NCBI GenBank assembly: GCA_965219535.1
Contig: CBDCNV010000002.1
Coordinates: 1,440,001 to 1,472,000, forward strand
Reading direction: 5' to 3'
Origin: Opitutales bacterium
Lineage (GTDB): Bacteria; Verrucomicrobiota; Verrucomicrobiia; Opitutales; PNEW01
DNA length: 32,000 nt
This document shows, in pieces, positions 2,649 through 32,000 of this stretch. The translations under genes were made by a program, and so were the position numbers. A model generated the notes under the pieces. The model searched no databases. It was given only the letters and a program-made list of their open reading frames with translations, and was not told the origin of the DNA. Each line of letters starts with the position of its first letter. The first letter of the stretch is position 1.

Positions 2649-2695
2649 ATGTCGCTATCGGGTATCGGTATCGAAATCGAAATCGGTATTGGGTT

Positions 2696-2762
2696 GGAAG
2701 ATGTCGGGCTATACCCTCGGTATACCGTTCAGGGTGGAAGATGTCGAGATGCGCTCTCGGTA
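2696..2762 (-). repeat. two REP-like hairpin units, reverse orientation (2696-2722, 2736-2762)
   Basis: GGAAGATGTCG-N9-CTCGGTA twice, 40 nt apart. This is the reverse complement of the TACCGAG-stemloop-CGACATCYYCC unit seen at nine other sites. Confidence 0.8.
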
Positions 2763-2807
2763 CAGGGGAGTAGAGGAGAAAAGACAAGTCGAGAAATTAT
2801 CAAAAAG

Positions 2808-2873
2808 CTACCGAGGGCAAAGCCCGACATCCCCCAATCACTACCGAGGGCAAAGCCCGACATCCCCCAATTT
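2808..2873 (+). repeat. 33-bp tandem duplication carrying two REP-like hairpin units
   Basis: CTACCGAGGGCAAAGCCCGACATCCCCCAAT at 2808 and again at 2841 (period 33). Confidence 0.9.
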
Positions 2874-2990
2874 CAAATAATATCCAAGTTACAATTACTA
2901 AATAGCCAAACTGTCTTTTCGTTTATTTCATAAATTGGAATTTCCATCATTGGAATTTATTTGTGATTTGGTAATTGATGTTTGTTGCTT
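2868..2990 (+). repeat. ~125-bp AT-rich module, copy a
   Basis: CAA(T)TTCAAATAATATCCAAGTTACAATTACTAAATAGCCAAACTGTCTTTTCG...TTGGAATTTCCATCATTGGAATTTATTTGTGATTTGGTAATTGATGTTTGTTGCTT. Aligns along its length with 3680-3808 and 20939-21061. Confidence 0.85.
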
Positions 2991-3010
2991 TTAAATTCTA
3001 CGTTTGACCC
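2990..3010 (+). promoter_or_regulatory. conserved 21-nt upstream motif TTTAAATTCTACGTTTGACCC (copy 1)
   Basis: Exact 21-mer, 33 nt upstream of the GNAT ATG (3044) and in the same orientation as the gene. Confidence 0.5.
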
Positions 3011-3043
3011 GTTTCGACTTTCATGAAAGAGGATTATTGAAAG

Positions 3044-3592
3044 ATGAGATTGAAATCAAAGATCGGCGAGGAGTTTATTTTGCGCGAAATATCTGACTTA
3101 GATTCAGAACTACTTGGTCAATATTTCGAATCATTATCAGCTGAAACGCGAAGAAGGTATGGCCCGCATCCGTTCACAAAAGAAATTGCCGGTGAACTTT
3201 GCACAAGAAAGCATGACAGTGCTAAGAGATTTGTTCTCACTCTTGTGGATAACACACGTTTCGTTGGGTATTTCATTTTAGAATTTCAAATGCACAAAGA
3301 TTTACTAAATCGCTATAAAGAAGAGGGAATTGTTCTTACAGATGGCAAAAATCCGTTGTTTGCACCTTCGATTGCAGATGACTATCAAAATACTGGATTA
3401 GCATCATTAGCAATGCCAGGTCTCATCAAAGCCGCGAAAGATCTTGGCGCAAAAAGTTTAGTATTAATGGGCGGAACTCAAGCGACTAATAAAAGAGCAA
3501 TCGCGTTTTATAAAAAGTTTGGCTTTGTGCATGTTTGTGATTTTGAAAATAAGTCCGGTCTCAATTATGATATGTGGTTGAGATTAGGTTAG
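3044..3592 (+). CDS. GNAT family N-acetyltransferase
   Basis: 182-aa ORF, AAGAGG 11 nt upstream. Acetyl-CoA-binding-type motif QNTGLASLAM ... NKRAIAFYKKFGF. Confidence 0.7.
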   Translation: MRLKSKIGEEFILREISDLDSELLGQYFESLSAETRRRYGPHPFTKEIAGELCTRKHDSAKRFVLTLVDNTRFVGYFILEFQMHKDLLNRYKEEGIVLTDGKNPLFAPSIADDYQNTGLASLAMPGLIKAAKDLGAKSLVLMGGTQATNKRAIAFYKKFGFVHVCDFENKSGLNYDMWLRLG

Positions 3593-3653
3593 AGAGGTTT
3601 ACCGTTCAAGGTTCACGGTTGAAAGAATGTTTTATCCTTTAGGATCAATCCGC

Positions 3654-3680
3654 TACCGAGGGCAAAGCCCGACATCTCCC
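3654..3680 (+). repeat. REP-like hairpin unit
   Basis: TACCGAGGGCAAAGCCCGACATCTCCC, preceded by the leader CCTTTAGGATCAATCCGC (3636-3653). Confidence 0.8.
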
Positions 3681-3808
3681 AATCGCAAATCACAAATTTC
3701 AAATAATATCCAAATTACAATTACTAAATAACCAAACTGTCTTTTCGTATATTGGTATTTCCATAATTGGAATTTATTTGTGATTTGGTATTTGATTTTT
3801 TGGTGCTT
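3680..3808 (+). repeat. ~125-bp AT-rich module, copy b
   Basis: Aligns with 2868-2990 and 20939-21061. Has a small insertion (CGCAAATCACAAAT) near its start and a short deletion in the middle. Confidence 0.8.
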
Positions 3809-3817
3809 AGCCAGTTG

Positions 3818-5134
3818 TCAGCGCTCTTCTACATTTTGACTTTTTGACTTTTTGACCTTTTGACGCGCATGACGCGCATATTCGTGCGCCACCGGCACTT
3901 TGATATGTGCATTGATATCTTGCACGGATTCTGGATTTTCCTCCTCTTGCTTAAATCCCCACAGCGTGCGTGCATGAGCTGCTTCGGCCCGATCGAGCAC
4001 CGGCTGTTGCAAGGTGTCACGTTCATCGGGACAGAGATGCCGCATCAACGGTTGTAGTTCAGGGGGCAGGGCTTGATACTCTGCGTGGTTAAGCGGACGG
4101 CATACGTGGTAGACATTGTACTTGTCTCCCGGGGCGAAGTCGTCGACGGACAACCACCAGGGGCACCAGCGATTCACCACCGCAACCCTTTCCCGACCAC
4201 TTGGATTGTGCCTGGCAGTCGCGTGCCAGCAACGTGAATCCTGGATATAGACAGACCCCGCTGGCGCGGATACTTGCATATCGCCGGGAATGGGCGCGGA
4301 AACCGAAATACCATCGTTCGGACCCCGTGGATTCCGCTTGTCCTTATGCGAACCCGGCACGATCCACGTGCCCCCCGAATTTTCATCGACATCGGTTAGA
4401 TACCAGATCATCACCAGGCACATGGTTACGTCGGGGCAGGGCTGGCGGATGCAGCCGGTATTAAGATAGGGGTCTTTATTGCCGTAAGCTGAAAGGTCGT
4501 GGGGCCAGTCTGTGTGCCAGCCGCGCTTTTCCGAACCTCGCATTTTCTTGAATTCGTCTACTCCCTCATTCTCGATAAATGCATCGTCGTTCTTAATGTG
4601 TCGGGTATGCATCTGCGCGATTCGAATATGGTCATCGAGAACGTGGCGTGCCACAGCGGTAGTTACCGGGTTGGCGAGATGCCGGGCGTACTGGGGCATC
4701 CAGATAATAATGTCGGGAGGTTTGGGAGGATGCCCGACTTTGCGCACTCGCCTTAACTCCACGTTGTTTGCCGCGGCCTTGCCGCTGAGTAATTCCTCTG
4801 CGTTCGCACCCTCTTGATCAAACAGGTCTTTAATGCCCTGAATATTGCGTTTAGCAGTTTCATCTGCCGCCTTAACTTCTTCGCGAATGGCGTCCACCTC
4901 GTCAGATGGTATCACATGGTCGACGACACAGAAACCGTATCGATCGAGTGAATCGGCACAACCCGCTACCACATCCTCAACGGACATCTTTGCGGAATCG
5001 AATGCATAGGCTCGAGTGCGGATAAGGTCTGCACTGACGGCCTCAGGGTCGATGGCCGATGCCAGGAGATCGCGGGTCTCCTGCAGCTCACGTTCCAGGC
5101 GCTCTACATTGGATTGTAATTCATTGATATCCAT
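3818..5134 (-). CDS. phytanoyl-CoA dioxygenase (PhyH) family Fe(II)/2OG oxygenase with N-terminal coiled-coil-like extension
   Basis: 438-aa ORF. HxD motif in GWHTDWPHD and distal His in RCWHATARHN. The last ~20 codons (HARQKVKKSKSQNVEER) are encoded by the reverse (GGTCAAAA)n/GCGC repeat module. Confidence 0.75.
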   Translation of the reverse strand: MDINELQSNVERLERELQETRDLLASAIDPEAVSADLIRTRAYAFDSAKMSVEDVVAGCADSLDRYGFCVVDHVIPSDEVDAIREEVKAADETAKRNIQGIKDLFDQEGANAEELLSGKAAANNVELRRVRKVGHPPKPPDIIIWMPQYARHLANPVTTAVARHVLDDHIRIAQMHTRHIKNDDAFIENEGVDEFKKMRGSEKRGWHTDWPHDLSAYGNKDPYLNTGCIRQPCPDVTMCLVMIWYLTDVDENSGGTWIVPGSHKDKRNPRGPNDGISVSAPIPGDMQVSAPAGSVYIQDSRCWHATARHNPSGRERVAVVNRWCPWWLSVDDFAPGDKYNVYHVCRPLNHAEYQALPPELQPLMRHLCPDERDTLQQPVLDRAEAAHARTLWGFKQEEENPESVQDINAHIKVPVAHEYARHARQKVKKSKSQNVEER

Positions 5135-5154
5135 TTTAATCGCTGGAGTGGATT

Positions 5155-5197
5155 AAAAGGTCAAAAGGTCAAAAAGTCAAAAGGTCAAAAAGTTGAC
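5155..5197 (+). repeat. (GGTCAAAA)n tandem array
   Basis: AAAAGGTCAAAAGGTCAAAAAGTCAAAAGGTCAAAAAGTTGAC. Reverse copies at 3834-3864 and 24907-24930. Short copies at 10171-10188 and 10221-10233. Confidence 0.9.
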
Positions 5198-5226
5198 GCC
5201 AAACACTGACGCGAGTGTTTTAATTC

Positions 5227-5266
5227 AGTCTAAAGTCAAAGGTCTAAGGTCGAAGGCGGGGAGGGG
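5227..5266 (+). repeat. AGTCTAAAGTCGAAGGTCGAAAGTCGAAAGCGGGG-type module
   Basis: One of seven copies: 5227-5266, 6844-6878, 9973-10008, 20848-20888, 30188-30220, 31467-31498, and reverse 17688-17715. Confidence 0.9.
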
Positions 5267-5332
5267 AAGTGAAAAATGAAAAGTGAACAGTGAGAGAGTT
5301 GCGTATAATATTTAACGGAGTTTATTATATTT

Positions 5333-5385
5333 CCCTGAACCCTGAACCCTGAACCCTGTACCGAGAGCGTAGCTCGACATCTTCC
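5333..5385 (+). repeat. (CCCTGAA)n array fused to a REP-like hairpin unit
   Basis: CCCTGAACCCTGAACCCTGAACCCTG followed by TACCGAGAGCGTAGCTCGACATCTTCC. The mirror-image arrangement is at 22398-22438. Confidence 0.85.
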
Positions 5386-5429
5386 AACCCTACACCTGAT
5401 GCTCTTCCGTTAGGATCAATCGACAATCG

Positions 5430-5456
5430 TACCGAGGACGAAGTCCGACATCTTCC
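5430..5456 (+). repeat. REP-like hairpin unit
   Basis: TACCGAGGACGAAGTCCGACATCTTCC, preceded by the leader TCCGTTAGGATCAATCGAC (5406-5424). Confidence 0.8.
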
Positions 5457-5480
5457 AAATCGAAAATCGGCAATCGATGG

Positions 5481-6350
5481 TCACGATGGTGGCTTAAAGC
5501 GTCGGTTGCGGGAAGCTGTTGTCGCACCACCGGATTCTGGCCAGGGACCTCCAAGGTGTCCCTCAGACCGGAGGGGCATGGCGGCATTGCCTGCGATGTG
5601 GTTCCAGGTTCTTACCCGGAGATCATGGTCGGTCCCGTACTCATTCCTGGAAAGTGTCGACGGGTGTTCGTTATCTAAGCGCACCCGCACATCGGGAATA
5701 TTCCCGGCGTCGTGATCCCAGGACGGTTCAGTATTCTCCTCGGTTCTCGAGTAGAGGAACTTGAACATGTAGCGCACCCGGTCGCTTCGGTTGCCCGTGC
5801 CCGCATGCCAGATGTCGTAATGAGTCAGGAGGACAGAACCGGCGTTGACCGTCGAAAACACCTGGCCTTTTAAATTCACAAGCGTGACCATAGTTTCAGG
5901 CGCAGCAACGCGCCTCTGACTGCCCGGCAGCAACACCGTGGGCCCCATGTCTTCAGTTACGTCCTGTGGATAATACATTAGCATCACGTGTTTGATGTGA
6001 TCGATATCCCTGTCCTGGTGACCCCTCCCGAAACGCTCGTCCTGGTGCCAGGGCTGGGCGCGTGTTTTGGGAGGGTTCATGTGAATGTGTCCACCCGGAT
6101 CTTTGAAGAAGCCCGGACCGAGCAGGCTGGTTAATGCACCGACGACCGAGGGGTGCTCCAGTACTACCGAGATTTTTGGCAATGCCTCGACGATACGCTC
6201 ACCTGGGTTTTCGGGCATCTTTCGGAGGCTATCACAGATCTCATCGTTGTAACCCGAAGGCAGATCTGGCTCGACGATGTGATACCCGCTGATGATGAAC
6301 GAAGCGACCTCGTCATCATTTAACAGGTTCGAGTTGTTACTTCTATTCAT
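5481..6350 (-). CDS. phytanoyl-CoA dioxygenase (PhyH) family protein
   Basis: 289-aa ORF. PWHQDERF (HxD) and DIWHAGTGNRS (distal His). Its start overlaps the stop of the upstream small ORF by 8 nt. Confidence 0.75.
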   Translation of the reverse strand: MNRSNNSNLLNDDEVASFIISGYHIVEPDLPSGYNDEICDSLRKMPENPGERIVEALPKISVVLEHPSVVGALTSLLGPGFFKDPGGHIHMNPPKTRAQPWHQDERFGRGHQDRDIDHIKHVMLMYYPQDVTEDMGPTVLLPGSQRRVAAPETMVTLVNLKGQVFSTVNAGSVLLTHYDIWHAGTGNRSDRVRYMFKFLYSRTEENTEPSWDHDAGNIPDVRVRLDNEHPSTLSRNEYGTDHDLRVRTWNHIAGNAAMPLRSEGHLGGPWPESGGATTASRNRRFKPPS

Positions 6351-6612
6351 CGATATCCACTAACTGATCCAGAATGAACTCGTAGCCGAACACGCCGACC
6401 GCTTCTGGATCGACATCCGCTCGCTGGGCCGGGAAGCTGACTACCCGCCAGCCGTCCAGAATGGCACCGTGCACGGTCTCGTATGGCATCTCTATGCCGG
6501 CTTCGATCTGTGGGGCATCAGACTCCACAGGTTCGTGGACGGCAAATCCAACGACGGGGGCTCTCAGGCTCCTCGATACGGCGTTCAAATAGAGAATTCT
6601 CTGTCGTTTCAT
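6343..6612 (-). CDS. hypothetical small protein (89 aa), possibly translationally coupled to the PhyH gene
   Basis: ORF with balanced, non-repeat composition. It ends ...GATGAATAG, which contains the ATG of the next gene. No recognisable motif. Confidence 0.45.
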   Translation of the reverse strand: MKRQRILYLNAVSRSLRAPVVGFAVHEPVESDAPQIEAGIEMPYETVHGAILDGWRVVSFPAQRADVDPEAVGVFGYEFILDQLVDIDE

Positions 6613-6654
6613 GAGGACGGATTACTCACTCAATCATGACCGGAATATGACAAG

Positions 6655-6675
6655 GGGTCAAACGTAGAATTTAAA
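6655..6675 (-). promoter_or_regulatory. conserved 21-nt upstream motif (copy 2, reverse strand)
   Basis: Exact reverse complement of TTTAAATTCTACGTTTGACCC, 42 nt upstream of the start at 6612 and oriented with that minus-strand gene. Confidence 0.5.
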
Positions 6676-6713
6676 GAGCGCTGACATAGCGCTGACGCGC
6701 GTGTTAAGTGTTA

Positions 6714-6757
6714 GGTATCGGTATCGAAATCGGGATCGAGTATCGAAATCGAGTATC
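6714..6757 (+). repeat. ATCGNN hexamer array
   Basis: GGTATCGGTATCGAAATCGGGATCGAGTATCGAAATCGAGTATC. Other arrays at 2661-2689, 9906-9925, 10095-10141 and 15029-15072. Confidence 0.9.
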
Positions 6758-6921
6758 CCTTCGACTGCGCTCAGGGCAGGCGGGTGTCAGGATTTAGTAA
6801 ACAGTGAACAGTGAAAGAGCGCTGACGCGCGTGTTTTAAAATTAGTCTAAAGTCGAAGGTCAAAAGTCGAAAGCAGGGAAGAATCTAATACATAGCCTGA
6901 CTTCATTTGAGTTTCTTGACA

Positions 6922-6942
6922 TTTAAATTCTACGTTTGACCC
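6922..6942 (+). promoter_or_regulatory. conserved 21-nt upstream motif (copy 3)
   Basis: Exact 21-mer, 92 nt upstream of ATG 7035. Followed by CTTTTCCCCTTACC. Confidence 0.5.
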
Positions 6943-7034
6943 CTTTTCCCCTTACCATTTTTATACCCCTAAACATTTCGATGATAAACGCATTCTGTAT
7001 GAGAAGTGTGAATCGTTCGCTAGAGATCTAACGC

Positions 7035-8444
7035 ATGTATACTCCTATCTGGATTAAGATCCCGGCAGGTAAATTTTGGATGGGTAGTGATCCAGCGGGC
7101 GATGTCGTACCTTACGAGAACGAAATCCCGAGACATCGGGTGCATGTCGATGAATTTCAGCTCGCACGTACGCACGTAACGAATGCTCAATACGCAGAAT
7201 TCGTCAGGAAATCCGGTTATCAAGCGCCTGGGCATTGGCTGAATGGAAAAATTCCTGAGGGCCTATCCGATCATCCGGTCACCTATGTTGACTGGCACGA
7301 TGCCCTGGCATTTTGTCAGTGGGCAGGTGTGCGACTGCCAACTGAAGCCGAATGGGAGAAGGCTGCGCGCAGCGACGATGCGCGGCTCTGGCCCTGGGGC
7401 AATCATCCACCCGATGCTCACCGTTGCAATTTTGCCAAACATATCTTTACAACCAGCCCGGTACACACATTTCTTCAGAGCGCCAGTCCGTATGGTGCAT
7501 TGGACATGGCCGGCAATGTCTGGGAATGGACAAGCAGCCTTACCCGCGCGTATCCATACAATAAGAATGACGGTCGAGAAAATCCAGCATTGGGTGAATC
7601 ACGAATTGTACGTGGCGGATCCTACACGCATGACGCACGCAATATTCGTGCTGCTGATCGGCACTCTTTTGTGCCCGGTACGAGAGGAGTATATCTCGGT
7701 TTTCGCGTTGCTCGCACGAGTCCTTCGAGAACCACGCGCTTAACTTTTGAGTGGGTCGATATTCCTTCGGGCGAATTTCAGATGGGCAACGATACGCGTG
7801 TCTTTCACGATCTGGCATTACCCAATGAATGCCCCTACCACGAGATTTCGTTAGAGGAATTTTATATAGCTCAGACACCGGTCACCAACGCGGAATATGA
7901 AAAGTTTGTGCGCGCTACCAATCATTTAGTCCCTGCTCATTGGATCGAAGGCGACATTCCACAAGGAAACGAAAATCATCCCGTGACGAATGTATCCTGG
8001 GACAGCGCTCAGGATTTTTGTGAATGGGCAAATGTACGTTTGTCAACCGAAGCGGAATGGGAAATGGCAGCACGAGGTCCAGGTTTGGGAAACGTGCGTG
8101 TTTATCCATGGGGCGACGAAATACCGCAAGAACCATGTGCAAATTATGCACGGGATGTAAAAACACATTCAACAACACCGGTCGATCAATTCCCCGGTGG
8201 CGCAAGTCCGTACGGCGTATACGACATGGCAGGTAATGTATGGGAGTGGACGAGCAGTGTGTTAGCGGACTATCCGTACTGCATCAATGATGGGCGCGAG
8301 GATTTAATGTCGCGCGCACACCGGGTATTGCGTGGGGGATCGTTTTACAGTCCGAGTGAAAGTTATATCCGTTGTGCAGCGCGCAGTTCGAGTTATCCAC
8401 AGCGCCGACGCGATCATATCGGATTTCGCATTGCAAAAAAGTAG
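7035..8444 (+). CDS. tandem double FGE-sulfatase-fold (SUMF1/EgtB/PvdO-type) domain protein
   Basis: 469 aa with two homologous halves (about aa 5-228 and 240-468). Each half has the motifs NE.P.H.V, VTNA.Y..F, HPVT.V.W, EAEWE.AAR, SPYG..DMAGNVWEWTS, RGGS and GFR(V/I)A. Confidence 0.8.
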   Translation: MYTPIWIKIPAGKFWMGSDPAGDVVPYENEIPRHRVHVDEFQLARTHVTNAQYAEFVRKSGYQAPGHWLNGKIPEGLSDHPVTYVDWHDALAFCQWAGVRLPTEAEWEKAARSDDARLWPWGNHPPDAHRCNFAKHIFTTSPVHTFLQSASPYGALDMAGNVWEWTSSLTRAYPYNKNDGRENPALGESRIVRGGSYTHDARNIRAADRHSFVPGTRGVYLGFRVARTSPSRTTRLTFEWVDIPSGEFQMGNDTRVFHDLALPNECPYHEISLEEFYIAQTPVTNAEYEKFVRATNHLVPAHWIEGDIPQGNENHPVTNVSWDSAQDFCEWANVRLSTEAEWEMAARGPGLGNVRVYPWGDEIPQEPCANYARDVKTHSTTPVDQFPGGASPYGVYDMAGNVWEWTSSVLADYPYCINDGREDLMSRAHRVLRGGSFYSPSESYIRCAARSSSYPQRRRDHIGFRIAKK

Positions 8445-12403: not shown

Positions 12404-12503
12404 AACATTTTATCCGAACCAACCCGTTAAAAACCTGCCTCTGCGCCACAAAATCGATTTCTTATTTGAATTAATCTGATTATTTTTATTCGAATACAAC
12501 ACA

Positions 12504-13235
12504 ATGGATAAGCGACACTGGACAGAGGGTGATCTTTCTCTTGCGAAAGGAAACATCGTTCAACATACGATCTTCCATAAAGAGGGTGAGAATAGTCCTG
12601 CATCGAACTTGCGCTATATCGAATCTTATTCCCATGGTTCGCTGGAAGCGGGAACAAGATCACTTGCCCATGTTAATGAGGGCATTCAGGAATTCTTCTT
12701 CATCCTGAATGGCACAGGAATATTAAGCACACCCTATGGAGAGCATTCGATTAGCGAGGGCGATGGCATACTCATGCCTCCAGGTATTGAACATACTATA
12801 ATAAATAACGGTAACATCACGCTGGAATTCTTAATGGTCGTTGAATCAATTGGCGATAAATCGGTTGTTAAAGCAACCAAACCACTCGTTCGCAACTATC
12901 GAGAAAGTGTTATGAGTATCAACCACTGGAGTTATCTGGGGTACCGGATTTTTGACGGGGAAGATGGTTTTAATGAGCTGGGGTATGTGGGTGTGGTATT
13001 AATCGATCCTCTTAGAACCGGTGATAATCATAGTCATGGACCCGATTTTGATGAAGTATGGTATATGTGGCGAGGTCAGGTTGTTCATATTGTTAGCCAG
13101 GAGGTCTGCATCCAAAGAGAGGGTACCGCGATTTCGGTGTGCCCCTGTCATCCAGGTCATACAATAATTAATCTGTCAAATGAACAAGTCTATTTTGTAT
13201 ATATCAGTAGCGTAAATCGAAATGATTCAGGCTGA
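12504..13235 (+). CDS. cupin-domain protein (possibly bicupin)
   Basis: 243 aa in an AT-rich gene. Two cupin-like segments: EFFFILNGTGIL...GDGILMPPGIEHTIINNG and GQVVHIV...ISVCPCHPGHTIINLS. Confidence 0.55.
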   Translation: MDKRHWTEGDLSLAKGNIVQHTIFHKEGENSPASNLRYIESYSHGSLEAGTRSLAHVNEGIQEFFFILNGTGILSTPYGEHSISEGDGILMPPGIEHTIINNGNITLEFLMVVESIGDKSVVKATKPLVRNYRESVMSINHWSYLGYRIFDGEDGFNELGYVGVVLIDPLRTGDNHSHGPDFDEVWYMWRGQVVHIVSQEVCIQREGTAISVCPCHPGHTIINLSNEQVYFVYISSVNRNDSG

Positions 13236-13782
13236 TAGTACGCAAATTAGAAGAACTATAGATAAAGTTCGTCTTCGCCTGATTCATCGTCCACATCGTA
13301 AATTGAATATTATAAATGATATAAATTATTTATGGACACAGATGAAAATTCGGCTGAAAACAAATATCATTTAATGTCTCACACTTATTATTCCGCAGAA
13401 AACTAGACATTAATTACAAGACAGGGGTATAACAATTAAAACCTTTGCTGTAAGCTGTGGGAGAATTAATTTTTTATAAACGTCCCCTTCGCGCGGTTGG
13501 GTTGGAAGCTGATCGGGTTTTGATTCGCAACGAAGCCCTTCGGACGTCGGCGACCTTCCTATTCCTCCACAACACCCAGTCGAAGCCACCCCATAGACAT
13601 CAATCCTAAAACCATTAACACCCAGTAACTCTCTCTGTAAATGATACGATTTATGATAATTACATAACTGGACTCGCTGCTAAGCTTTGGCGAGGCAAGC
13701 GAAGAGTTATTACCTTTTTTGGTTTGACTTCATTTAGCGTAGCACTCTATCAGGATAATGAATTGACAGAACCCCCTTGAAG

Positions 13783-22471: not shown

Positions 22472-22537
22472 AAAGGGGTCAGGCTCTGCATTCTGACATA
22501 AATTAAAAAATGTCAGAATGCAGAGCCTGACCCCTTT
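22472..22537. repeat. perfect 27-bp inverted repeat (hairpin/cruciform) with a 12-nt AT loop
   Basis: AAAGGGGTCAGGCTCTGCATTCTGACA - TAAATTAAAAAA - TGTCAGAATGCAGAGCCTGACCCCTTT. The right arm recurs at 26011-26039. Confidence 0.9.
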
Positions 22538-22964
22538 TGTCTTTATTTATATTTATCTGCTATTTTTTTACGCTGACTGTCGTTGATTTCACATATTGAC
22601 ACTTCAGCGCGATTCGTCGCAAGTATACAACGCGTATGACTTTCACCTATTGACCCTGTGCCAGCGACGAGAATCTTTTTTTTAGCTGCTATCATAAATC
22701 AATTACTCCTATAAGAAAAGAGCATCCGTAAGTTCTCTCATCAGCCAAGAGAAACGTTTGGGCTTCAGGGGAAAAACAAAAGAGATCATCCTCCATTTTT
22801 AAAGTATGAAGAGCACATTCATTGAACCGTAAGACTAGATAAATCGGTTTAATATTTCAAAGTGGGTTATAATAGAATTAATAACAAAACAATCTTCTCA
22901 TTTATCATGGGGTGCCTTTAGAATTATCCTTTCTATAAACATAATGAATATTAAAATATGAGGG

Positions 22965-24725
22965 ATGACCCCTTTGCCCCGCACTCAAACGCAGAGTCAA
23001 AATCCAAGCACATTGCATGAGGTCCGCCTTTTGCACGGATTGCGAGTGCCGATGCGCGACGGCGTGCAGCTCTCGGCAGATGTCTACCTGCCGCGCTTCG
23101 AGCAAGGCCCGTTTCCGACCATTGTAACACGAACGCCCTATGAAAGCGGCCGCGATGTGTTTATCGAGCTCGGGGTCTGGTGGGCTGAGCGCGGATACGC
23201 CTTTGCAGTCGAAGACTGCCGTGGTCGCTTTGAGTCCGAAGGCGTCTTCCACGCCTACTTTCCCGAAATCGAGGACGGCTACGATACTCTGGAGTGGGTT
23301 GCCGCGCAGATATGGTGCAACGGAAAGATCGCCACCTGGGGACGCAGTTACGGGGCGCTGACCCAGTGGTTGATGGCGCCGTTGCAAAGTCCGCACCTGA
23401 CCTGCATGGCCCCGCACGTAATCTGCGACGACTTCTTCAGCGACTGCCATTATATCGGCGGGGCGTTCCAGCTGATGCTGTCGATGGGGGCGATGACGAT
23501 CTGGGAGACCAATTTAGCCACAGTCGTCGGGAACCAGGCGGCCAAGCTCTTTCAGAACCGCGCCTTCTGGAACCACCTGCCGCTGATCGAACTCGACGAA
23601 TGGGCCATTGGGCGCAAGGTTCCCTATTGGCGTGAGTGGCTGGAGCACTCCACCTACGATGCTTATTGGGAACGCTGCAACACGATGGGTCGCTATGACC
23701 AGATAGCAGTCCCTGCTTTTCAGCAGTGTGGCTTCTTTGATCCCTATACGGCGGCTGGTTTTCGCAGATTCAATGGGATAAGCCAACAGGGCGCTACGCC
23801 GCAGGCGCGCACTCAGCAGCGGATCCTGGTGGGTCCGTGGTCGCACGAAGTGCCGGAGAGCACGCGGATGGGCGCTATGGATTTTGGCCCGGAGTCGCTT
23901 TTGGATATACGCGAGGAAGAGCGCCGCTTTTTCGACTGGCAACTCAGGGGGATCGAGGGCGGAATGGCCACCGAGCAGCCGATACAGATCTTTGTGACGG
24001 GGACCGGTCGCTGGCGTTACGCCGACCAGTGGCCGCTGCCTGACATGCGCTACGTGCCGCATTACCTGCACAGCAATGGCCGGGCACACTCCGATTCCGA
24101 CGACGGCGGCCTGATTCCGGAGCCCCCCGGCAATGAACCTCCCGACCGTTTTACCTACGACCCACAGGACCCCGTGCCGACCCGAGGCGGCAACCTGTCT
24201 GTGCAGATGATGAGTCAGCACGCTGAAGACCCACTTCTGGCCGGACCAGTCGACCAGCGGTCAATCGAAGCCCGCACCGATGTGCTGGTCTATACCTCGC
24301 CCGTATTGGCTGAGGATCTCACCGTCATCGGTCCGATCCAGGTGTTGCTCTATGCCGCATCGTCTGCACGCGATACGGACTTTACGGCGCGGTTGACGGA
24401 TGTCGACCAGAAAGGGCGCTCGCTGGTGCTCAGCGAGGGAATTCTGCGCGGACGCTACCGCAAGGGCACGATCAAAACAGAGCTTTTAGAGCCCGAAGAA
24501 GTCGACGAGTTCAAGATCGAACTCTGTCCGGCGTGCCACGTGTTTTTAGCCGGGCACTGTTTGCGGCTCGACATCAGCAGCAGTAATTTCCCGCGCTTCA
24601 GCCGCAATTTGAATACCGGGGAAGATGTAGCTACCGGGACCAGGATGCAGACGGCCAGGCAGACCGTGTTGCACACAGGTCAGTACCCGTCGCATATCGT
24701 GCTGCCGGTGGTCGATGCATATTAG
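22965..24725 (+). CDS. CocE/NonD family (S15 X-Pro dipeptidyl-peptidase-like) alpha/beta hydrolase
   Basis: 586 aa: VQLSADVYLP, PTIVTRTPYE, GYAFAVEDCRGRFESEG, nucleophile elbow WGRSYGA, and a C-terminal beta-sandwich-like region. Confidence 0.8.
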   Translation: MTPLPRTQTQSQNPSTLHEVRLLHGLRVPMRDGVQLSADVYLPRFEQGPFPTIVTRTPYESGRDVFIELGVWWAERGYAFAVEDCRGRFESEGVFHAYFPEIEDGYDTLEWVAAQIWCNGKIATWGRSYGALTQWLMAPLQSPHLTCMAPHVICDDFFSDCHYIGGAFQLMLSMGAMTIWETNLATVVGNQAAKLFQNRAFWNHLPLIELDEWAIGRKVPYWREWLEHSTYDAYWERCNTMGRYDQIAVPAFQQCGFFDPYTAAGFRRFNGISQQGATPQARTQQRILVGPWSHEVPESTRMGAMDFGPESLLDIREEERRFFDWQLRGIEGGMATEQPIQIFVTGTGRWRYADQWPLPDMRYVPHYLHSNGRAHSDSDDGGLIPEPPGNEPPDRFTYDPQDPVPTRGGNLSVQMMSQHAEDPLLAGPVDQRSIEARTDVLVYTSPVLAEDLTVIGPIQVLLYAASSARDTDFTARLTDVDQKGRSLVLSEGILRGRYRKGTIKTELLEPEEVDEFKIELCPACHVFLAGHCLRLDISSSNFPRFSRNLNTGEDVATGTRMQTARQTVLHTGQYPSHIVLPVVDAY

Positions 24726-24946: not shown

Positions 24947-25834
24947 CTATTCAGGTTCCATGTTAATATCGGAACGTCTAATGCAATTTAGTGGACCAGA
25001 GGGAATTTTCCAATCGGGGAAATCGCGCTTAAAAGCCTGGAGCAATAATTCTTCATCGTTCGGCAGAAAATATATTTTACTGCGCGATCGCGAGGTATTG
25101 GTGGAAGGATCATAAGATTCGCTGATTTGGGGGGCAGGATGAAGGCAATCGATCCATGCCTGGTTCAAGACACCGCATTGCGGATAAGCCCAAGCAACAA
25201 GATAGTTGTTATCCCTGGAAATACAACCGATGATAGGTAAGACGGGCCGGTCAGTACTCCGACCAAGTCGCTGCCCGGGTTCCTGCCCGGGATGTATTCG
25301 CCAGGTGGGAAAGTAATCCTGTGTCCAGGTGAGGGGAGCGTTCGCTCTTTTGGCCTGCAAATCATTGCCATAGCGTTTTGCGGGCAACCTTGAGGTATCT
25401 TTCATGCACGTTAAACCTCCATCTAGAAAAACGAAACACCGAGCGACAAATTCTTCGACGTAATTTTCAGGATCTCCCCGATGCCCAAAATTATCTGCCC
25501 GTTTTAATTGCCAGCAAGGTTCCAAGTACTCGACTTGCTGAACACTTTCTTTATCCGGACCGGTCACTTCCACCGTGAATTCCACTCCATCATCTGCCGG
25601 TTTGACAATCGTAGTTATCAATGCCTGTGCTAAATGATGAGTAAGGATTAATTGATTATTTTCCAGATGGTGGTTGCTGGCATTCCAAACCGGTCCTTCA
25701 TAGCACCAGATCTGACAATGAGAACCCGGAACAGCTGAATATTTTAAATCTACATAAGTATGACGCGTTATTTCTTCAGGCATTAGGCCTTGAATAGCTT
25801 CTTCTTTATAGTCGATTGTAACCGGATCCTTCAT
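24947..25834 (-). CDS. hypothetical protein (295 aa)
   Basis: Long ORF with AGGGAG RBS 6 nt upstream of the ATG and normal amino-acid composition. No motif recognised. Confidence 0.5.
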   Translation of the reverse strand: MKDPVTIDYKEEAIQGLMPEEITRHTYVDLKYSAVPGSHCQIWCYEGPVWNASNHHLENNQLILTHHLAQALITTIVKPADDGVEFTVEVTGPDKESVQQVEYLEPCWQLKRADNFGHRGDPENYVEEFVARCFVFLDGGLTCMKDTSRLPAKRYGNDLQAKRANAPLTWTQDYFPTWRIHPGQEPGQRLGRSTDRPVLPIIGCISRDNNYLVAWAYPQCGVLNQAWIDCLHPAPQISESYDPSTNTSRSRSKIYFLPNDEELLLQAFKRDFPDWKIPSGPLNCIRRSDINMEPE

Positions 25835-26352
25835 TATTGGCTCCCTTATAGGAGCAAGACTGTATACTTATCTTAGGAATAAGGTAGAAAAAAATGAAGC
25901 AACATATACAAGAAAGAAGATTAGAAAGAAGACAAGGGGGTTGTCATCTTTTGATTGCTTACTAGTAAATCAAAAAATTCGCAGTCTGACCCCATTTGCG
26001 GTTTCTATAATGTCAGAATGCAGAGCCTGACCCCTTTTGCTTTATCGACCCCTTTTGCTTTATCAAGTGGAGAGAGAATTAATCATGTCGATCATATTGT
26101 ATATTGGGTTTCATGAAATTGGTAGATTTGACTCCCTTCTAGCCTTTTTTCAATCCGCTTTCCGCAATCGAATGATTGCACTTATTAGTTTAATTGAACA
26201 TTAAGTCATATTTAATTAAAATCTTTTACTATTGTAGTTGAACAATGTAAAAGTAGTACGTCCTTGTATCGATGTATATTAAATATTGAATTTAAGTAAC
26301 TACCAACCTGGACCTCTTTTATACAAACCAGAATAGATGAATCTATCATGTA

Positions 26353-27339
26353 ATGGCAGATCCGGTATATGATGATAAAAATCGCCGTTGGGATATCTTC
26401 CGATTAGTTGCGCCGTGGTTCGGTCGTACAGTAACTTCTAGGTTTCTTCAAAATACATCTGAATATATTCCAGGAGTAGAGCGTATTCATCACTTAATCA
26501 GAGGGAGCTACAAACCAGCTTGGACAGATTTTCCTTTAGCAATCCAGATTACGCATAGTGGGCAGTACGAAGATAAAATAAGTTATGCCAAAGATGGTAT
26601 GTGGAGAGTCTATTATAGTCCAGAAGCTGGTCCATTAGATGACTGGCAAAACGCATCACTATTTAAACTCATTCAATATGGAGAACCGGTAATTGTGACA
26701 AATCGCATATCGGACAAAACAGACCATAGGGGGGCTAGACATCATATTATGGGGTTAGGTCTTTTTCAAAGTTTCGATGAAAATCTGCATTCTTTTTTGG
26801 TTCAAGGTGCTGGTTTTGATATGCTTCAGCAGGTTATTGGATCTACAATCAATGATGAACTTTTAGATACAGCATTGCGATTAGAAGCACTCGAAGCTTG
26901 GGTTCCTTTTATAGAAGAAGGTAAGTCCATCTATAAATTATCTGCTGAAAAAAGAGATAACGCCTTTAGAGGTGTTATATTAGATAACTATTGTAATACC
27001 TGTGCTGTAACAGGACAGCGATTCCATTTTGGAGATAACATTGAAGCAGAAGCTGCCCATATTATTAGTAAATATAAACGGGGGACTGATGATCCACGTA
27101 ACGGAATTGCATTATCACGCTCTGTTCATTGGGCATTTGATAAAGGTATTTTTACAATCTCAGACCAATATGAAATCGTGATACACCCTCGTTCGTGTGA
27201 AGCTAATTATCAACAATTCTCTTTAATGAATTTAGATCGTAAACGATTAACTTTACCTGAAGATGATTATTATTTTCCTCATCCTGAAGCTCTAAAATGG
27301 CATCGCGATAATAAATTCGGTGAGTTTTTAATAAGTTGA
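26353..27339 (+). CDS. candidate modification-dependent (type IV-like) nuclease: SRA/PUA-like N-terminal region + HNH_2-type C-terminal nuclease
   Basis: C-terminus: CNTCAVTGQRF...IEAEAAHIISKY...DPRNGIALSRSVHWAFDKGIFTI (HNH_2-type pattern). N-terminus: GSYKP...LAIQITHSGQYEDK...WRVYYSPEAG...NASL...EPVIVTNR, which parallels the SRA/YDG motif order. Confidence 0.6.
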   Translation: MADPVYDDKNRRWDIFRLVAPWFGRTVTSRFLQNTSEYIPGVERIHHLIRGSYKPAWTDFPLAIQITHSGQYEDKISYAKDGMWRVYYSPEAGPLDDWQNASLFKLIQYGEPVIVTNRISDKTDHRGARHHIMGLGLFQSFDENLHSFLVQGAGFDMLQQVIGSTINDELLDTALRLEALEAWVPFIEEGKSIYKLSAEKRDNAFRGVILDNYCNTCAVTGQRFHFGDNIEAEAAHIISKYKRGTDDPRNGIALSRSVHWAFDKGIFTISDQYEIVIHPRSCEANYQQFSLMNLDRKRLTLPEDDYYFPHPEALKWHRDNKFGEFLIS

Positions 27340-27516
27340 GATTGGTAATGAATAAAACATTCTGAATTGCTGTGACGCTGAGCTTCTCAAATGACTGTGT
27401 GAAAAGAGCGACGTCAATAGATTCTGTCAGCGACTAGTCAGGTTAAGTCTGAAATCCTGGGCGAAATATAAACACCTGATTACCGAACGTGGCTTTTACA
27501 GTGTATAATTAATAGT

Positions 27517-28251
27517 GGGTCATGCCTAGAACAGAGGGTATCTTAAGCACATATTAAGGATGTTACGATGGAGGTTTTGATGACGATGGTTAAAGCGATA
27601 TTCAGTTTCTTTGAGGTGCAGTTGGAAGGTCCTACGAGAAAGACCTTTGAACTTAGCCAATCGAAGTTTAGCAAAAGCCCAAAAAGATTCAATCCCGTTA
27701 ATGTGGGAGTGTCCCTGGGCAAACTCGTTGTCGTTGTGATTGACACGGTAATGCTTCTTATAGCCCAGATCCACGAGGCCGTTGTAAGCACGCCACCCGT
27801 CAGAATAAAGCACACTGTCAAAAGTAACTCTCCCTTGGATCACCGCATGCAGAGCGGCTCTGGAGACGTTGCGTACAACCTGGGTATAGACTTTCCCATT
27901 ACGCTTGAGCAACCCGAAGACGGGCACTTTCTTGAATGCACCCCGACCTCTTTGCCCTGGAATTCTTTTGCCTCCAAAGTAGGACTCATCCATTTCCACC
28001 GACCCCCTAAAAGGCGAGGCCTGCGCACATTGCTGCAACAAACGCTCCCGCAACAAGCGCAAATAACGGTTGACCGTGTTACGATTCAATCCTGTCAATT
28101 GGGCTATCTTCAACGCTTCCATATCCAAGCTAAAACACTTTACTAACTGCCGAAATTTGGCCTCAGAAATTTTTGAACGATGTACATACTTATTTCTCAT
28201 TTGTCTAGAATAGCTTACACATCTGATATGTGTCTATTCTAGGCATGACCC
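27517..28251 (-). mobile_element. IS1595-family insertion sequence (735 bp)
   Basis: Perfect 15-bp TIRs GGGTCATGCCTAGAA (27517-27531) / TTCTAGGCATGACCC (28237-28251). 8-bp direct target duplication TTAATAGT (27509-27516 and 28252-28259). Confidence 0.9.
27526..28200 (-). CDS. IS1595-family (ISXO2-like DDE) transposase
   Basis: 224 aa: VEMDESYFGGKR...GRGA..KVPVFGL, YSDGWRAYNGL, YRVNHNDNEF...HINGIESFWAFAK, ETEYRFNHR. Confidence 0.9.
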   Translation of the reverse strand: MRNKYVHRSKISEAKFRQLVKCFSLDMEALKIAQLTGLNRNTVNRYLRLLRERLLQQCAQASPFRGSVEMDESYFGGKRIPGQRGRGAFKKVPVFGLLKRNGKVYTQVVRNVSRAALHAVIQGRVTFDSVLYSDGWRAYNGLVDLGYKKHYRVNHNDNEFAQGHSHINGIESFWAFAKLRLAKFKGLSRRTFQLHLKETEYRFNHRHQNLHRNILNMCLRYPLF

Positions 28252-28276
28252 TTAATAGTTAATAAATTAAAGTAAT

Positions 28277-29173
28277 ATGAAAAATAACAAAATCGTCAAA
28301 TCACTCCTGCAGGATCTTAATTCATATGTATATTCTAGATCAATGACATCATTAAAAAAGGGGAGATACTTAAGTGCATGTATACGTTCATCTTTTGTTA
28401 AGACATATGAATTTATTGATTTAGCGTTTCGTAAGTTGTCGCAAGAACATGCTTTTTTTCTTGTCACGAATCTTCGAGGAATTACAGAGGATCTTATTTA
28501 TTTACGATTTATGACTACGCTAAATCTCAATGATAGAGATAATATGATTGAAGGGCTCATGGTCCTTGAAGTTTTTAATAACATATCTCATCAAAATAAA
28601 TTTTTTTGCAAATTTAGACCATTTCAACCTGTCCTTAACAATGTTCCATCTAATAATCTTATCGATAAAACGAGGCTAAAGATCCAAAAAATATGGCGAC
28701 AGAACGGCTGGCCAAATTTACAATCAAATTATACTTCTCCTCCTACTCGACAAATTGCTGAACGGACCGACCCTAATTATATGGAGATTATCTATGATTA
28801 CATATTCCGGCTCACTTCAGATACTGTACATTTTAAACCTGGAATATTACTAAGATCTGGTTGGGGGCCATCCAAAAGCATGACTAAATTCACAACCTCT
28901 AACATGTCGCGCTATTATTTCGCATTTTCTAGAATATATGGAATCTTTCTTTTCACACTGTATTTTGAATTTTTTCCAAGATTTCTTAAACCGGGCGATC
29001 GGATTCAAGGCAAAGTAGAGCAGCTGCGTGAATTAATTTTGCGAGAACAACGTTGGCCGGAAATGGTAACTTTTGAGGAAATGAATCAAGCTGTTCCTAA
29101 GAAAAACATTATTCAATTTTTAATACAATCAATCTATACTTTAGAATACAAATCGGGATTTTTTAATAAGTAA
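28277..29173 (+). CDS. hypothetical protein (298 aa), AT-rich islet
   Basis: Uninterrupted ORF in ~25-35 % GC DNA, where random ORFs of this length are unlikely. The ATG lies 25 nt after the IS1595 right end. No confident motif. Confidence 0.5.
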   Translation: MKNNKIVKSLLQDLNSYVYSRSMTSLKKGRYLSACIRSSFVKTYEFIDLAFRKLSQEHAFFLVTNLRGITEDLIYLRFMTTLNLNDRDNMIEGLMVLEVFNNISHQNKFFCKFRPFQPVLNNVPSNNLIDKTRLKIQKIWRQNGWPNLQSNYTSPPTRQIAERTDPNYMEIIYDYIFRLTSDTVHFKPGILLRSGWGPSKSMTKFTTSNMSRYYFAFSRIYGIFLFTLYFEFFPRFLKPGDRIQGKVEQLRELILREQRWPEMVTFEEMNQAVPKKNIIQFLIQSIYTLEYKSGFFNK

Positions 29174-29369
29174 ATGATCCATATCATGTTTCCTACCTTT
29201 TTTTAATTGGAAATTATTGAATAATGATTAGCCCCCATTATCCCGCCGTAGCTGAACTCTAAATCCAGTACCCTACAAACATTCCATTGAATAACTTGAC
29301 AATCTTTGGATGGGGACGTAGGCCAAACGGTTTTCTGATACACATTTATAACCGCAAAGAAAGACTCGT

Positions 29370-30167: not shown

Positions 30168-30311
30168 GGCGCGATAGCGACTGCGCGCGTCTAAAGTCGA
30201 AGGTCCAAAGTCGAAAGCCGAAGAAGAGGGATAGCCACAAAAGGCACAAAAGGCGCAAAGAAGAGTTTTGAACCGCGGATATCGCAGATATGCGCGGATG
30301 TTGATTTAGAT

Positions 30312-30480
30312 CAGGTGAAACACGGTTCTTGATCTCAATGTCATCCCTCCTGCATTTGCAGGATGGATTGACTACGGCTATTCCCTAGCGCTTTTTTAAA
30401 ATGTAATTTTAAAAAACGCGTAGGAAAAATCCGACACTCAGCTAGCTGAGTTATTGCGATCATGCACCGAGTTTCACCTG
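30312..30480 (+). repeat. 169-bp multi-hairpin palindromic element, copy 1 (MITE-like or structured RNA candidate)
   Basis: 28-nt termini CAGGTGAAACACGGTTCTTGATCTCAAT / ATTGCGATCATGCACCGAGTTTCACCTG are inverted repeats with 4 mismatches. Three internal hairpins. Same length and architecture as 31721-31889. Confidence 0.85.
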
Positions 30481-30733
30481 AGCTTTCTCCCCGTTCTTCC
30501 CGAACTTCCTGTAAAAAATCTCTTTTCTTTTTATGTGTCTCTTGTGCCTCTTGCCTGCCGGCCATAGCCTTGGCGACGGCTGGTGGCCAACAATCTTAAC
30601 TTTTTTTTTATCGGCGTTCATCCGCGTTATCAGCGATTAATTCTTTTCGTTCTTCCTGTGTTTCCTGTTAAAGTTTTTTATTTTTGTTTTTTATCTTTCT
30701 CTAATATCCTTCGCTAATTAGTTTAGAGATCAG

Positions 30734-31620: not shown

Positions 31621-31720
31621 CAAGAGGCACAGAAGGTACAAGAGGGATAAGAATAAATTTAACCACGAATGAACACGAATCGACACGAATAAAAGAGAGA
31701 AGAAATAGTAGTAACAAAGT

Positions 31721-31889
31721 CAGGTGAAACACGGTGCTTGATCTCAATTACATCTCACCCGTATCTACGGGAGCGATGTTACGGCTATTCCCTAGCGCTT
31801 TTTTAAAATGTAATTTTAAAAAAGCGCGTAGGAAACATCCGACACTCAGCTGTGCTGAGTTATTGCGATCAAGCACCGTGTTTCACCTG
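31721..31889 (+). repeat. 169-bp multi-hairpin palindromic element, copy 2
   Basis: Termini CAGGTGAAACACGGTGCTTGATCTCAAT / ATTGCGATCAAGCACCGTGTTTCACCTG pair at 27 of 28 positions. Internal hairpins CCCGTA-TC-TACGGG, GCGCTTTTTTAAAAT-GTA-ATTTTAAAAAAGCGC and CTCAGC-TGT-GCTGAG. Confidence 0.85.
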
Positions 31890-32000
31890 AGCTTAGTCCT
31901 ATTTCATTTATTTTTTGCCTAGCAGCCATAGCATTGGTGACGGTTGGTGTCCTACAACCTTAATTATTCATTTTATCGGCGTTCATTCGCGCTATCCGCG

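Follow-up and report, generated by a model that had tools for sequence, protein, structure and literature searches.

A putative SRA-like/HNH_2 restriction endonuclease gene and a DUF5677 gene are independent neighbours in an AT-rich, probably strain-variable islet of an Opitutales bacterium

The SRA-HNH enzymes TagI, ScoA3IV/Sco5333, TbiR51I, MsiJI and VcaCI are proteins of about 300-330 amino acids (aa) in which a base-flipping reader from the PUA superfamily, at the N-terminus, is followed by a linker and a C-terminal HNH nuclease with a catalytic His-Asn-His set and a downstream Asp. They occur as single genes with no adjacent methyltransferase gene, and the characterized members act alone (PMC6212794, PMC6765204). 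In TagI a zinc ligand (C213), the general base (H229), a structural asparagine (N245) and two metal ligands (H254 and D258) have been identified, and mutagenesis has shown that the catalytic residues matter (PMC6212794). VcaM4I, an EVE-HNH enzyme of the TspA15I group, is also a modification-dependent single-chain enzyme, with an HNH_2-type nuclease, and the SBD-HNH/ScoMcrA-type endonucleases (NF045808) are phosphorothioate dependent. A different kind of described system is formed by genes 'embedded' in larger defence systems (Hma-embedded candidates, BrxU in BREX), a pattern that has predicted defence genes with high success (10.1101/2024.01.29.577857). Here we analyse a stretch of 32,000 nucleotides (nt), hereafter the window, from an Opitutales bacterium (GenBank assembly GCA_965219535.1, contig CBDCNV010000002.1, positions 1,440,001 to 1,472,000 of the forward strand). 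Within it an AT-rich islet of about 3.2 kb, 735 bp of which are an insertion sequence (IS), carries an open reading frame (ORF) for an SRA-like/HNH_2 protein (ORF1), the IS1595-family element and an ORF for a DUF5677 protein (ORF2).

We read this as an ordinary strain-variable defence islet with two unrelated, independent cargo genes, lying at a variable site upstream of a gene for an HpcH-type aldolase, and give this reading a probability of about 0.72. A first-pass annotation of the window had placed both ORFs exactly where we find them (328 and 298 aa; Table 1), and their start codons agree with the N-termini of their homologues; its proposal that ORF2 is a functional partner of ORF1 did not survive comparison with other loci. 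An ORF1-family hidden Markov model (HMM), which also detects other HNH_2 proteins, was run over up to 10 kb on each side of DUF5677 genes outside the window's own organism, and none of the 21 species-representative genome loci gave an ORF1-family or HNH_2 match. Four further DUF5677 loci gave none either, bringing the total to 0 of 25 within 6-10 kb. The reverse comparison covered 80 metagenome loci in which an ORF1 homologue occurs (50 clusters at 90 % identity; 49 with at least 1.5 kb downstream), and a DUF5677 HMM matched in none of them. Because the two families co-occur in 0 of 25 and 0 of 80 loci, a two-gene module is rejected: ORF1 and ORF2 are neighbours by chance. The expectation that homologues of ORF2 would prove to be linked to defence genes held in part, in that they adjoin varied ones (type I restriction-modification (RM), Mza, Hma, AbiE, TIR), but in these 25 loci never an ORF1-family or HNH_2 gene.

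The islet stands out by composition. Its G+C content is 0.353 when the IS is left aside (0.376 in ORF1, 0.332 in ORF2), against 0.491 for the window, 0.546 for the left flank and 0.483 for the right flank; taken 200 nt at a time, values within the islet are 0.28-0.41 and those in the flanks 0.5-0.6. The sharp drop described in the first-pass annotation was exact to the letter (15 G+C among the 60 nt of 28261-28320), and the islet is supported as compositionally foreign. Its left limit, near 26065, was set by composition and by the last host-type repeat module (26046-26064). The right junction lies at about 29278-29289, because nucleotide homology with contigs of related strains starts there (at 29278 on L105 and at 29289 on L106). 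The aldolase gene lies directly to the right of the islet, and its counterpart on L105, a related-strain contig from the same sample, is 94 % identical. Upstream of that counterpart, where 10 kb are covered, the exact place of ORF1, the IS and ORF2 is taken on L105 (66-9660) by genes for an EVE-McrB protein (AAA_5), McrC and an EcoEI_R_C protein, hypothetical genes, and IS3-type and IS200/Y1 transposases. At least one related strain therefore has a different type IV system at this site, and since that system is EVE-McrBC, the site is suggested to be a defence hotspot. The view of the locus as a horizontally acquired defence islet is upheld both by the foreign composition and by this cargo at the same place in a related strain. 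No tRNA gene was found in the window and no convincing flanking direct repeat of the kind that marks an att-type boundary. A consensus scan of the islet for promoters and terminators gave counts at the level of shuffled sequence and is uninformative on co-transcription.

Table 1. Coordinates of the islet features in the window and of loci used for comparison
Feature	Location	Strand	Remarks
AT-rich variable islet, limits approximate	26065..29278	.	Limits from G+C and repeat modules (left) and homology onset (right)
ORF1, 328 aa, SRA-like reader + HNH_2 nuclease, putative type IV modification-dependent restriction endonuclease	26353..27339	+	
SRA-like (PUA-superfamily) reader domain of ORF1	26488..26847	+	Roughly residues 46-165
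HNH_2 nuclease domain and C-terminal extension of ORF1	26950..27318	+	Roughly residues 200-322
ORF2, 298 aa, all-helical DUF5677-family protein	28277..29173	+	Stand-alone defence-island gene
IS1595-family insertion sequence, 735 bp	27517..28251	-	19-nt terminal inverted repeats; NCBIfam transpos_IS1595, Pfam DDE_Tnp_IS1595
Target-site duplication TTAATAGT, 8 bp, left copy	27509..27516	.	
Target-site duplication TTAATAGT, right copy	28252..28259	.	17 nt upstream of ORF2 ATG
Host-type short repeat modules TGACCCC(T/A)TTTGC, three copies	25985..26064	+	Two copies form an exact 18-nt tandem; left edge of islet
Paralogue/ORF1-family example	L033: 3597-4559, about 4560-5548, 5639-7504	+, +, +	
DUF5677 gene directly after AIPR of Mza system	L003		7-nt gap
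DUF5677 gene after TIR/bSEFIR gene	L018		
DUF5677 gene between GmrSD/HEC-06-like gene and HmaB (Hma methylase)	L021		4-nt overlap with methylase start
DUF5677 gene two genes from another DUF1156 methylase	L005		
DUF5677 gene after hsdR of type I RM	L110		
DUF5677 gene beside AbiE pairs	L111		
DUF5677 gene near AAA_15/AAA_21 ATPase gene	L112		
DUF5677 gene among housekeeping genes	L113		One case

ORF1 is most likely a divergent SRA-like/HNH_2 enzyme and a putative type IV modification-dependent restriction endonuclease. Its nuclease half is recognized by Pfam HNH_2 (47.5 bits against a cut-off of 21, 1.6e-12, residues 217-269) and by the PADLOC HNH model PDLC04132 (1.1e-15, residues 200-322). 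There are 524 homologues in databases, the nearest about 50 % identical and full-length (about 325 aa), and nearly all of them have either no name or that of 'HNH endonuclease'; the family was found in 259 metagenome stretches; a tblastn search of plasmids with ORF1 returned only distant 'HNH endonuclease' matches (at most 29 % identity over the longer ones). Across the 42 members on which the family alignment and profile are built, C217, H236, N250, H259 and D263 are invariant, and they align with C213, H229, N245, H254 and D258 of TagI. The HNH_2-type pattern noted by the first-pass annotation was confirmed by the Pfam match and includes a C-x2-C (C214 and C217), but only the second cysteine is conserved in the family. 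Because the consensus residue at position 214 is glycine, this pair is, judged by the alignment, not the zinc-binding CxxC of TagI; the TagI-type zinc site (CxxC together with CxxC, CxxD or CxxH) is absent from ORF1, the second pair being missing (S255...V258). ORF1 thus differs from the SRA-HNH enzymes in having an HNH_2-type HNH domain with no structural zinc site, and in a helical stretch of about 45 additional residues at the N-terminus. VcaM4I, with which ORF1 shares the motif 'NG..L....H..FDkG', was the only match to the single ORF1 sequence in the PDB (E 0.29; 0.07 with the family profile). The best NCBIfam match was PT-DNA_restrict (NF045808; 8e-23), whose 80.9 bits are under half the family cut-off of 180 and which covers the HNH half only (profile positions 151-283) in four of the five relatives scanned; the HNH domain and C-terminal extension of these SBD-HNH/ScoMcrA-type enzymes are related to those of ORF1, whereas their sulfur-binding domain is unmatched in ORF1-family members.

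The reader half was assigned by fold. In the AlphaFold2 model of ORF1 (mean predicted local distance difference test score, pLDDT, 72.6) strands are predicted at residues 63-66, 76-78, 84-88, 112-120, 129-142 and 147-152 and a helix at 98-109, and the first 15 Foldseek matches to this model in the PDB are exclusively SRA domains (KRYPTONITE, SUVH5, SUVH6, SUVH9) or SRA-like domains (AbaSI, PvuRts1I), at E values of 5e-4 to 0.25 and probabilities of 0.85-1.0 for ranks 1-14 and 0.57 for rank 15. Against the isolated SRA domain of SUVH5 the template modelling (TM) score per target was 0.40-0.48 (probability 0.99-1.0). No EVE domain, which is the reader of VcaM4I, appeared among the 50 Foldseek matches listed. 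The 42-member profile, though not the ORF1 sequence by itself, matched the SRA-HNH enzyme TagI (6GHS) in the PDB at E 4.2e-5, in an alignment that spans the back half of the SRA domain (the 'N..L....PV.V' segment), the linker and the HNH domain. Ten residues of the reader are invariant in the family, namely H46, W84 and the eight that the first-pass annotation had picked out as following the SRA/YDG motif order (G51, K54, P55, Y72, D74, Y88, N100 and P112), and its SRA-HNH reading of ORF1 is borne out by the Foldseek and TagI matches. Pfam SAD_SRA (PF02182), with which it had hoped to confirm the domain, did not match ORF1 at E values up to 5 and matched only two of the 42 family members (best E 0.033). 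Y72, D74 and Y88 follow the same order as Y55, D58 and Y67 of TagI, although the tyrosines are separated by 16 rather than 12 residues and the correspondence is one of order.

By our interpretation, ORF1 would act as a single-chain type IV restriction endonuclease, whose SRA-like domain would flip a modified base of invading DNA, most likely 5-methylcytosine (5mC) or 5-hydroxymethylcytosine (5hmC), into a pocket that includes the invariant Y72, Y88 and D74. The C-terminal HNH_2 domain would then nick or cut nearby, with H236 as the predicted general base and H259 and D263 as putative metal ligands, and by analogy with TagI the enzyme is probably a dimer. Neither a methyltransferase nor an immunity gene would be needed, because the host would be without the modification; the islet ORFs of at least 150 aa are ORF1, the transposase, an opposite-strand ORF that overlaps it (27568-28146) and ORF2, and no methyltransferase gene lies beside ORF1. 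The family to which ORF1 belongs is large and uncharacterized, and ORF1 adds to an enzyme type, SRA-HNH, that is already known.

ORF2, which the first-pass annotation had left unplaced and without a motif, belongs to DUF5677 (Pfam PF18928; 27.8 bits against a cut-off of 27.1), as do all 43 of its aligned homologues (best E 9.6e-14). In an exhaustive profile search the family comprised 774 clusters at 50 % identity, nearly all of them single-domain proteins of about 300 aa. The Pfam model, for which no function is known, spans residues 66-191 only; the subfamily of ORF2 adds a conserved C-terminal half (G195-W196, Y221-G222 and RWPEMVTFEEMN at 259-270). Prediction of both structures, which gave SRA relatives for ORF1, yielded for ORF2 a confident all-helical model with one hairpin (pLDDT 91.2, predicted TM score 0.89) but no significant Foldseek relative in the PDB or BFVD; no relative was found in the PDB by sequence or profile. 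PADLOC, which recognized the HNH domain of ORF1, gave nothing for ORF2, nor did PHROGs or NCBIfam, and tblastn found no match in the plasmid and phage collections. The polar residues R67, E71, Q106, R114, Q117, H185, R259, E262 and E267 are invariant among the homologues, and because so many are, they suggest an active or binding site. A HEPN reading (R178-x6-H185) was considered and rejected, because conservation is lacking at R178 and neither a HEPN family nor a HEPN fold was matched. Longer DUF5677 relatives carry no confident extra Pfam domain other than a transposase tail in P0329 and an HNH tail in P0257. In the latter, a database protein of 372 aa, residues 1-30 match the final part of a classic HNH domain (PF01844, 21.7 bits), and a full DUF5677 domain comes after them in frame; either the protein is a genuine HNH-DUF5677 fusion truncated by a contig end, or its start was mis-called, and it is the sole case seen.

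DUF5677 homologues resemble embedded genes in that they read in the same direction as Hma, Mza and type I RM operons and lie within these or at their end (Table 1). They differ in that DUF5677 is not a described HEC family (no PADLOC match) and that the copy in the window is not embedded in a multi-gene system. In at least four loci (L005, L011, L014, L020) the homologue lies between opposite-strand genes on both sides, and because of this it is monocistronic and can stand alone there. ORF2 would accordingly be, by association, a stand-alone DUF5677 gene that most likely acts as an autonomous anti-phage or anti-mobile-element gene. A broader reading, to which we give somewhat less than an even chance, is that DUF5677 is a new family of autonomous effectors of this kind, recruited repeatedly as embedded or appended genes of type I RM, Hma, Mza and TIR systems and with an all-helical fold to which neither solved structures nor predicted viral ones offer a relative.

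It may still be asked whether ORF1 and ORF2 form one two-gene defence module, in which the SRA-HNH nuclease would have the DUF5677 protein as its immunity factor, its sensor or a second effector. The genes lie on the same strand, were 194 nt apart before the IS inserted and are both AT-rich, and P0257 has an HNH tail in frame ahead of DUF5677. The HNH of P0257, however, belongs to a different HNH family and is a single case, and the product, which begins inside the HNH motif, may stem from a truncated gene call; members of either family are found singly, among neighbours that vary, and the characterized SRA-HNH enzymes work alone (PMC6212794, PMC6765204). With no co-occurrence in the 25 DUF5677 and 80 ORF1-family loci in addition, we regard such a module as very improbable.

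Several points nevertheless weigh against the reading that we prefer, of a defence islet with two independent cargo genes. As regards the site, the left boundary could not be fixed by synteny, the hotspot rests on a single informative related contig, and L109, which is more distantly related, carries a monooxygenase gene at the site and no defence genes. As regards ORF1, the SRA assignment is made at the level of fold and is moderate (pLDDT 72.6, TM 0.40-0.48, SAD_SRA below threshold), the spacing of the Tyr and Asp residues is Y-x-D rather than the Y-x-x-D of UHRF1 and TagI, and the segment that forms the 'finger' loop of TagI is about 12 residues shorter by sequence and profile alignment. 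Because of this spacing and the shorter finger, its base specificity could differ from that of canonical SRA domains, and the reader might recognize something other than 5mC or 5hmC, such as N6-methyladenine (6mA, as in the PUA-HNH group of ScoA3V), glucosylated or hypermodified bases, or phosphorothioate; PUA-HNH enzymes with 6mA-stimulated nicking do exist (PMC6765204), and PT-DNA_restrict is the best NCBIfam match. We consider this unlikely. The significant fold matches of ORF1 are all readers of cytosine modifications, and an invariant carboxylate with two invariant aromatic residues suits a cytosine pocket by the logic of TagI (PMC6212794). A sulfur-binding (phosphorothioate) reader was rejected, since the NCBIfam match falls far short of its cut-off and in relatives extends over the HNH half only; moreover, the only nucleases matched by the family profile in the PDB at E values up to 10 were TagI and VcaM4I, with nothing named sulfur-binding domain or McrA there or among the 50 Foldseek matches listed. 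As regards ORF2, the defence role of DUF5677 rests on neighbourhood only, one homologue lies in a housekeeping context, and a DUF5677 gene tried in Enterococcus faecalis was not among the protecting ORFs (PMC12632615). DUF5677 could instead be a passenger of mobile DNA that travels in variable regions with another role, for example in regulation or maintenance, as the frequency of transposases among its neighbours and the lack of PADLOC, PHROG and NCBIfam matches for ORF2 might also indicate. Its repeated tight, co-directional placement within Mza, Hma, type I RM and TIR operons or at their end, a pattern that has predicted defence genes well (10.1101/2024.01.29.577857), and the failure of tblastn with ORF2 to find plasmid or phage copies make this alternative somewhat doubtful, and we retain ORF2 as a member of a known family, without a function so far, that is a reasonable but unproven defence candidate.

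The recurrent neighbours of ORF1 homologues are different ones. In 16 loci the gene directly before the ORF1 homologue, and on its strand, is a paralogous HNH_2 gene (320-395 aa), whose neighbour cluster extends over 19 of 79 loci. The paralogue has only the HNH half in common with ORF1, and its N-terminal domain, of about 200 aa, is a different one. Arrangements like that of L033 (Table 1) also occur in L034-L038, L050, L054, L061, L064 and L095 and are absent from the window; the HNH_2 paralogue and the ORF1-family gene may constitute a real multi-gene arrangement of two reader-HNH enzymes. A gene for a Schlafen-group-3/DUF2075 (SLFN-g3) helicase is found within two genes of an ORF1 relative in ten loci, and other neighbours include Mrr, ThsB-TIR, SLOG and HsdR genes.

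The element between ORF1 and ORF2 is a small but otherwise ordinary member of the IS1595 family, with the characteristic IS1595/ISXO2-type DDE transposase, short terminal inverted repeats and 8-bp duplication all present. The transposase ORF (27526-28200, minus strand, 224 aa) scores 175 bits against a cut-off of 75 with NCBIfam transpos_IS1595 (NF033547) and matches Pfam DDE_Tnp_IS1595 (PF12762) at 7.3e-29; the inverted repeats (27517-27535 and 28233-28251) are 95 % complementary, and the duplication is perfect. The G+C content of the IS, 0.463, is unlike that of the islet. Removal of the IS and one duplication copy leaves the 194 nt between ORF1 and ORF2 mentioned above, in line with the earlier estimate of about 190 nt. 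No second copy was found within the window, and two further assemblies of the window's organism (L001 and L002) share the insertion. In L002 a short Logan contig on which ORF1 is identical stops after 29 nt of the IS (1508-1536), and because it does, the IS is suggested to be multi-copy in that genome and to break the assembly. The element would have inserted recently, and because its right end is only 25 nt from the start codon of ORF2, it has probably separated ORF2 from its native promoter.

Repeats in the window bear on the left edge of the islet. Where 0.95 copies of the module TGACCCCTTTTGC would be expected, the window has 12 (at 6937, 10395, 10839, 15113, 18684, 22386, 22528, 22966, 24887, 25987, 26028 and 26046), most of them apparently in gaps between longer ORFs as judged against the ORF list, and an exact 18-nt tandem duplication that includes it lies at 26029-26064. 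The first-pass annotation was correct that none is found inside the islet, the last being at 26046-26058, but with only about 1.2 copies expected in 3.3 kb this absence is by itself weak evidence. HIP1 (GCGATCGC), considered as a marker of a cyanobacterial host, is uninformative, with two sites against 0.93 expected. Between a peptidase S15 gene and the islet lies an ORF of 295 aa (24947-25834, minus strand) with no Pfam family and an intermediate G+C content (about 0.40-0.54); because it has no nucleotide counterpart in L105 or L109, the variable region may extend to the left beyond the AT-rich part. Other stretches of the window with a G+C content of 0.36-0.44 are 2501-4000, 12501-13500 and 22501-23000. 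At 30308-30484 and 31691-31890 the window carries an element, about 175-200 nt long and bounded by 32-nt inverted repeats (30308-30339 and 30453-30484), that recurs several times in related contigs, including L105 and L109; it looks like a host repeat of the miniature inverted-repeat transposable element (MITE) type. Nearly identical stretches of 15 nt precede the stop regions of ORF1 (GAGTTTTTAATAAGT, 27322-27336) and ORF2 (GATTTTTTAATAAGT, 29157-29171), a likeness that is probably due to chance in AT-rich DNA.

The significance of these findings is modest and rests mainly on DUF5677. Adjacency in an AT-rich islet is not in itself evidence for a system, and here the comparative test disproves the pairing. 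The ORF1 family, with over 500 proteins in databases and 259 stretches of metagenome, consists of reader-HNH_2 nucleases that are annotated only as 'HNH endonuclease', and if its reader is a divergent SRA-like domain, the family becomes a candidate class of modification-dependent restriction enzymes. Enzymes of this type are of use in mapping epigenetic marks, and they help to predict the modified phages to which a host is resistant. DUF5677 is a credible and testable defence candidate because it is repeatedly embedded in known systems. Should it prove to be an effector family, the copy in the window would provide a second, independent line of defence beside the type IV restriction enzyme.

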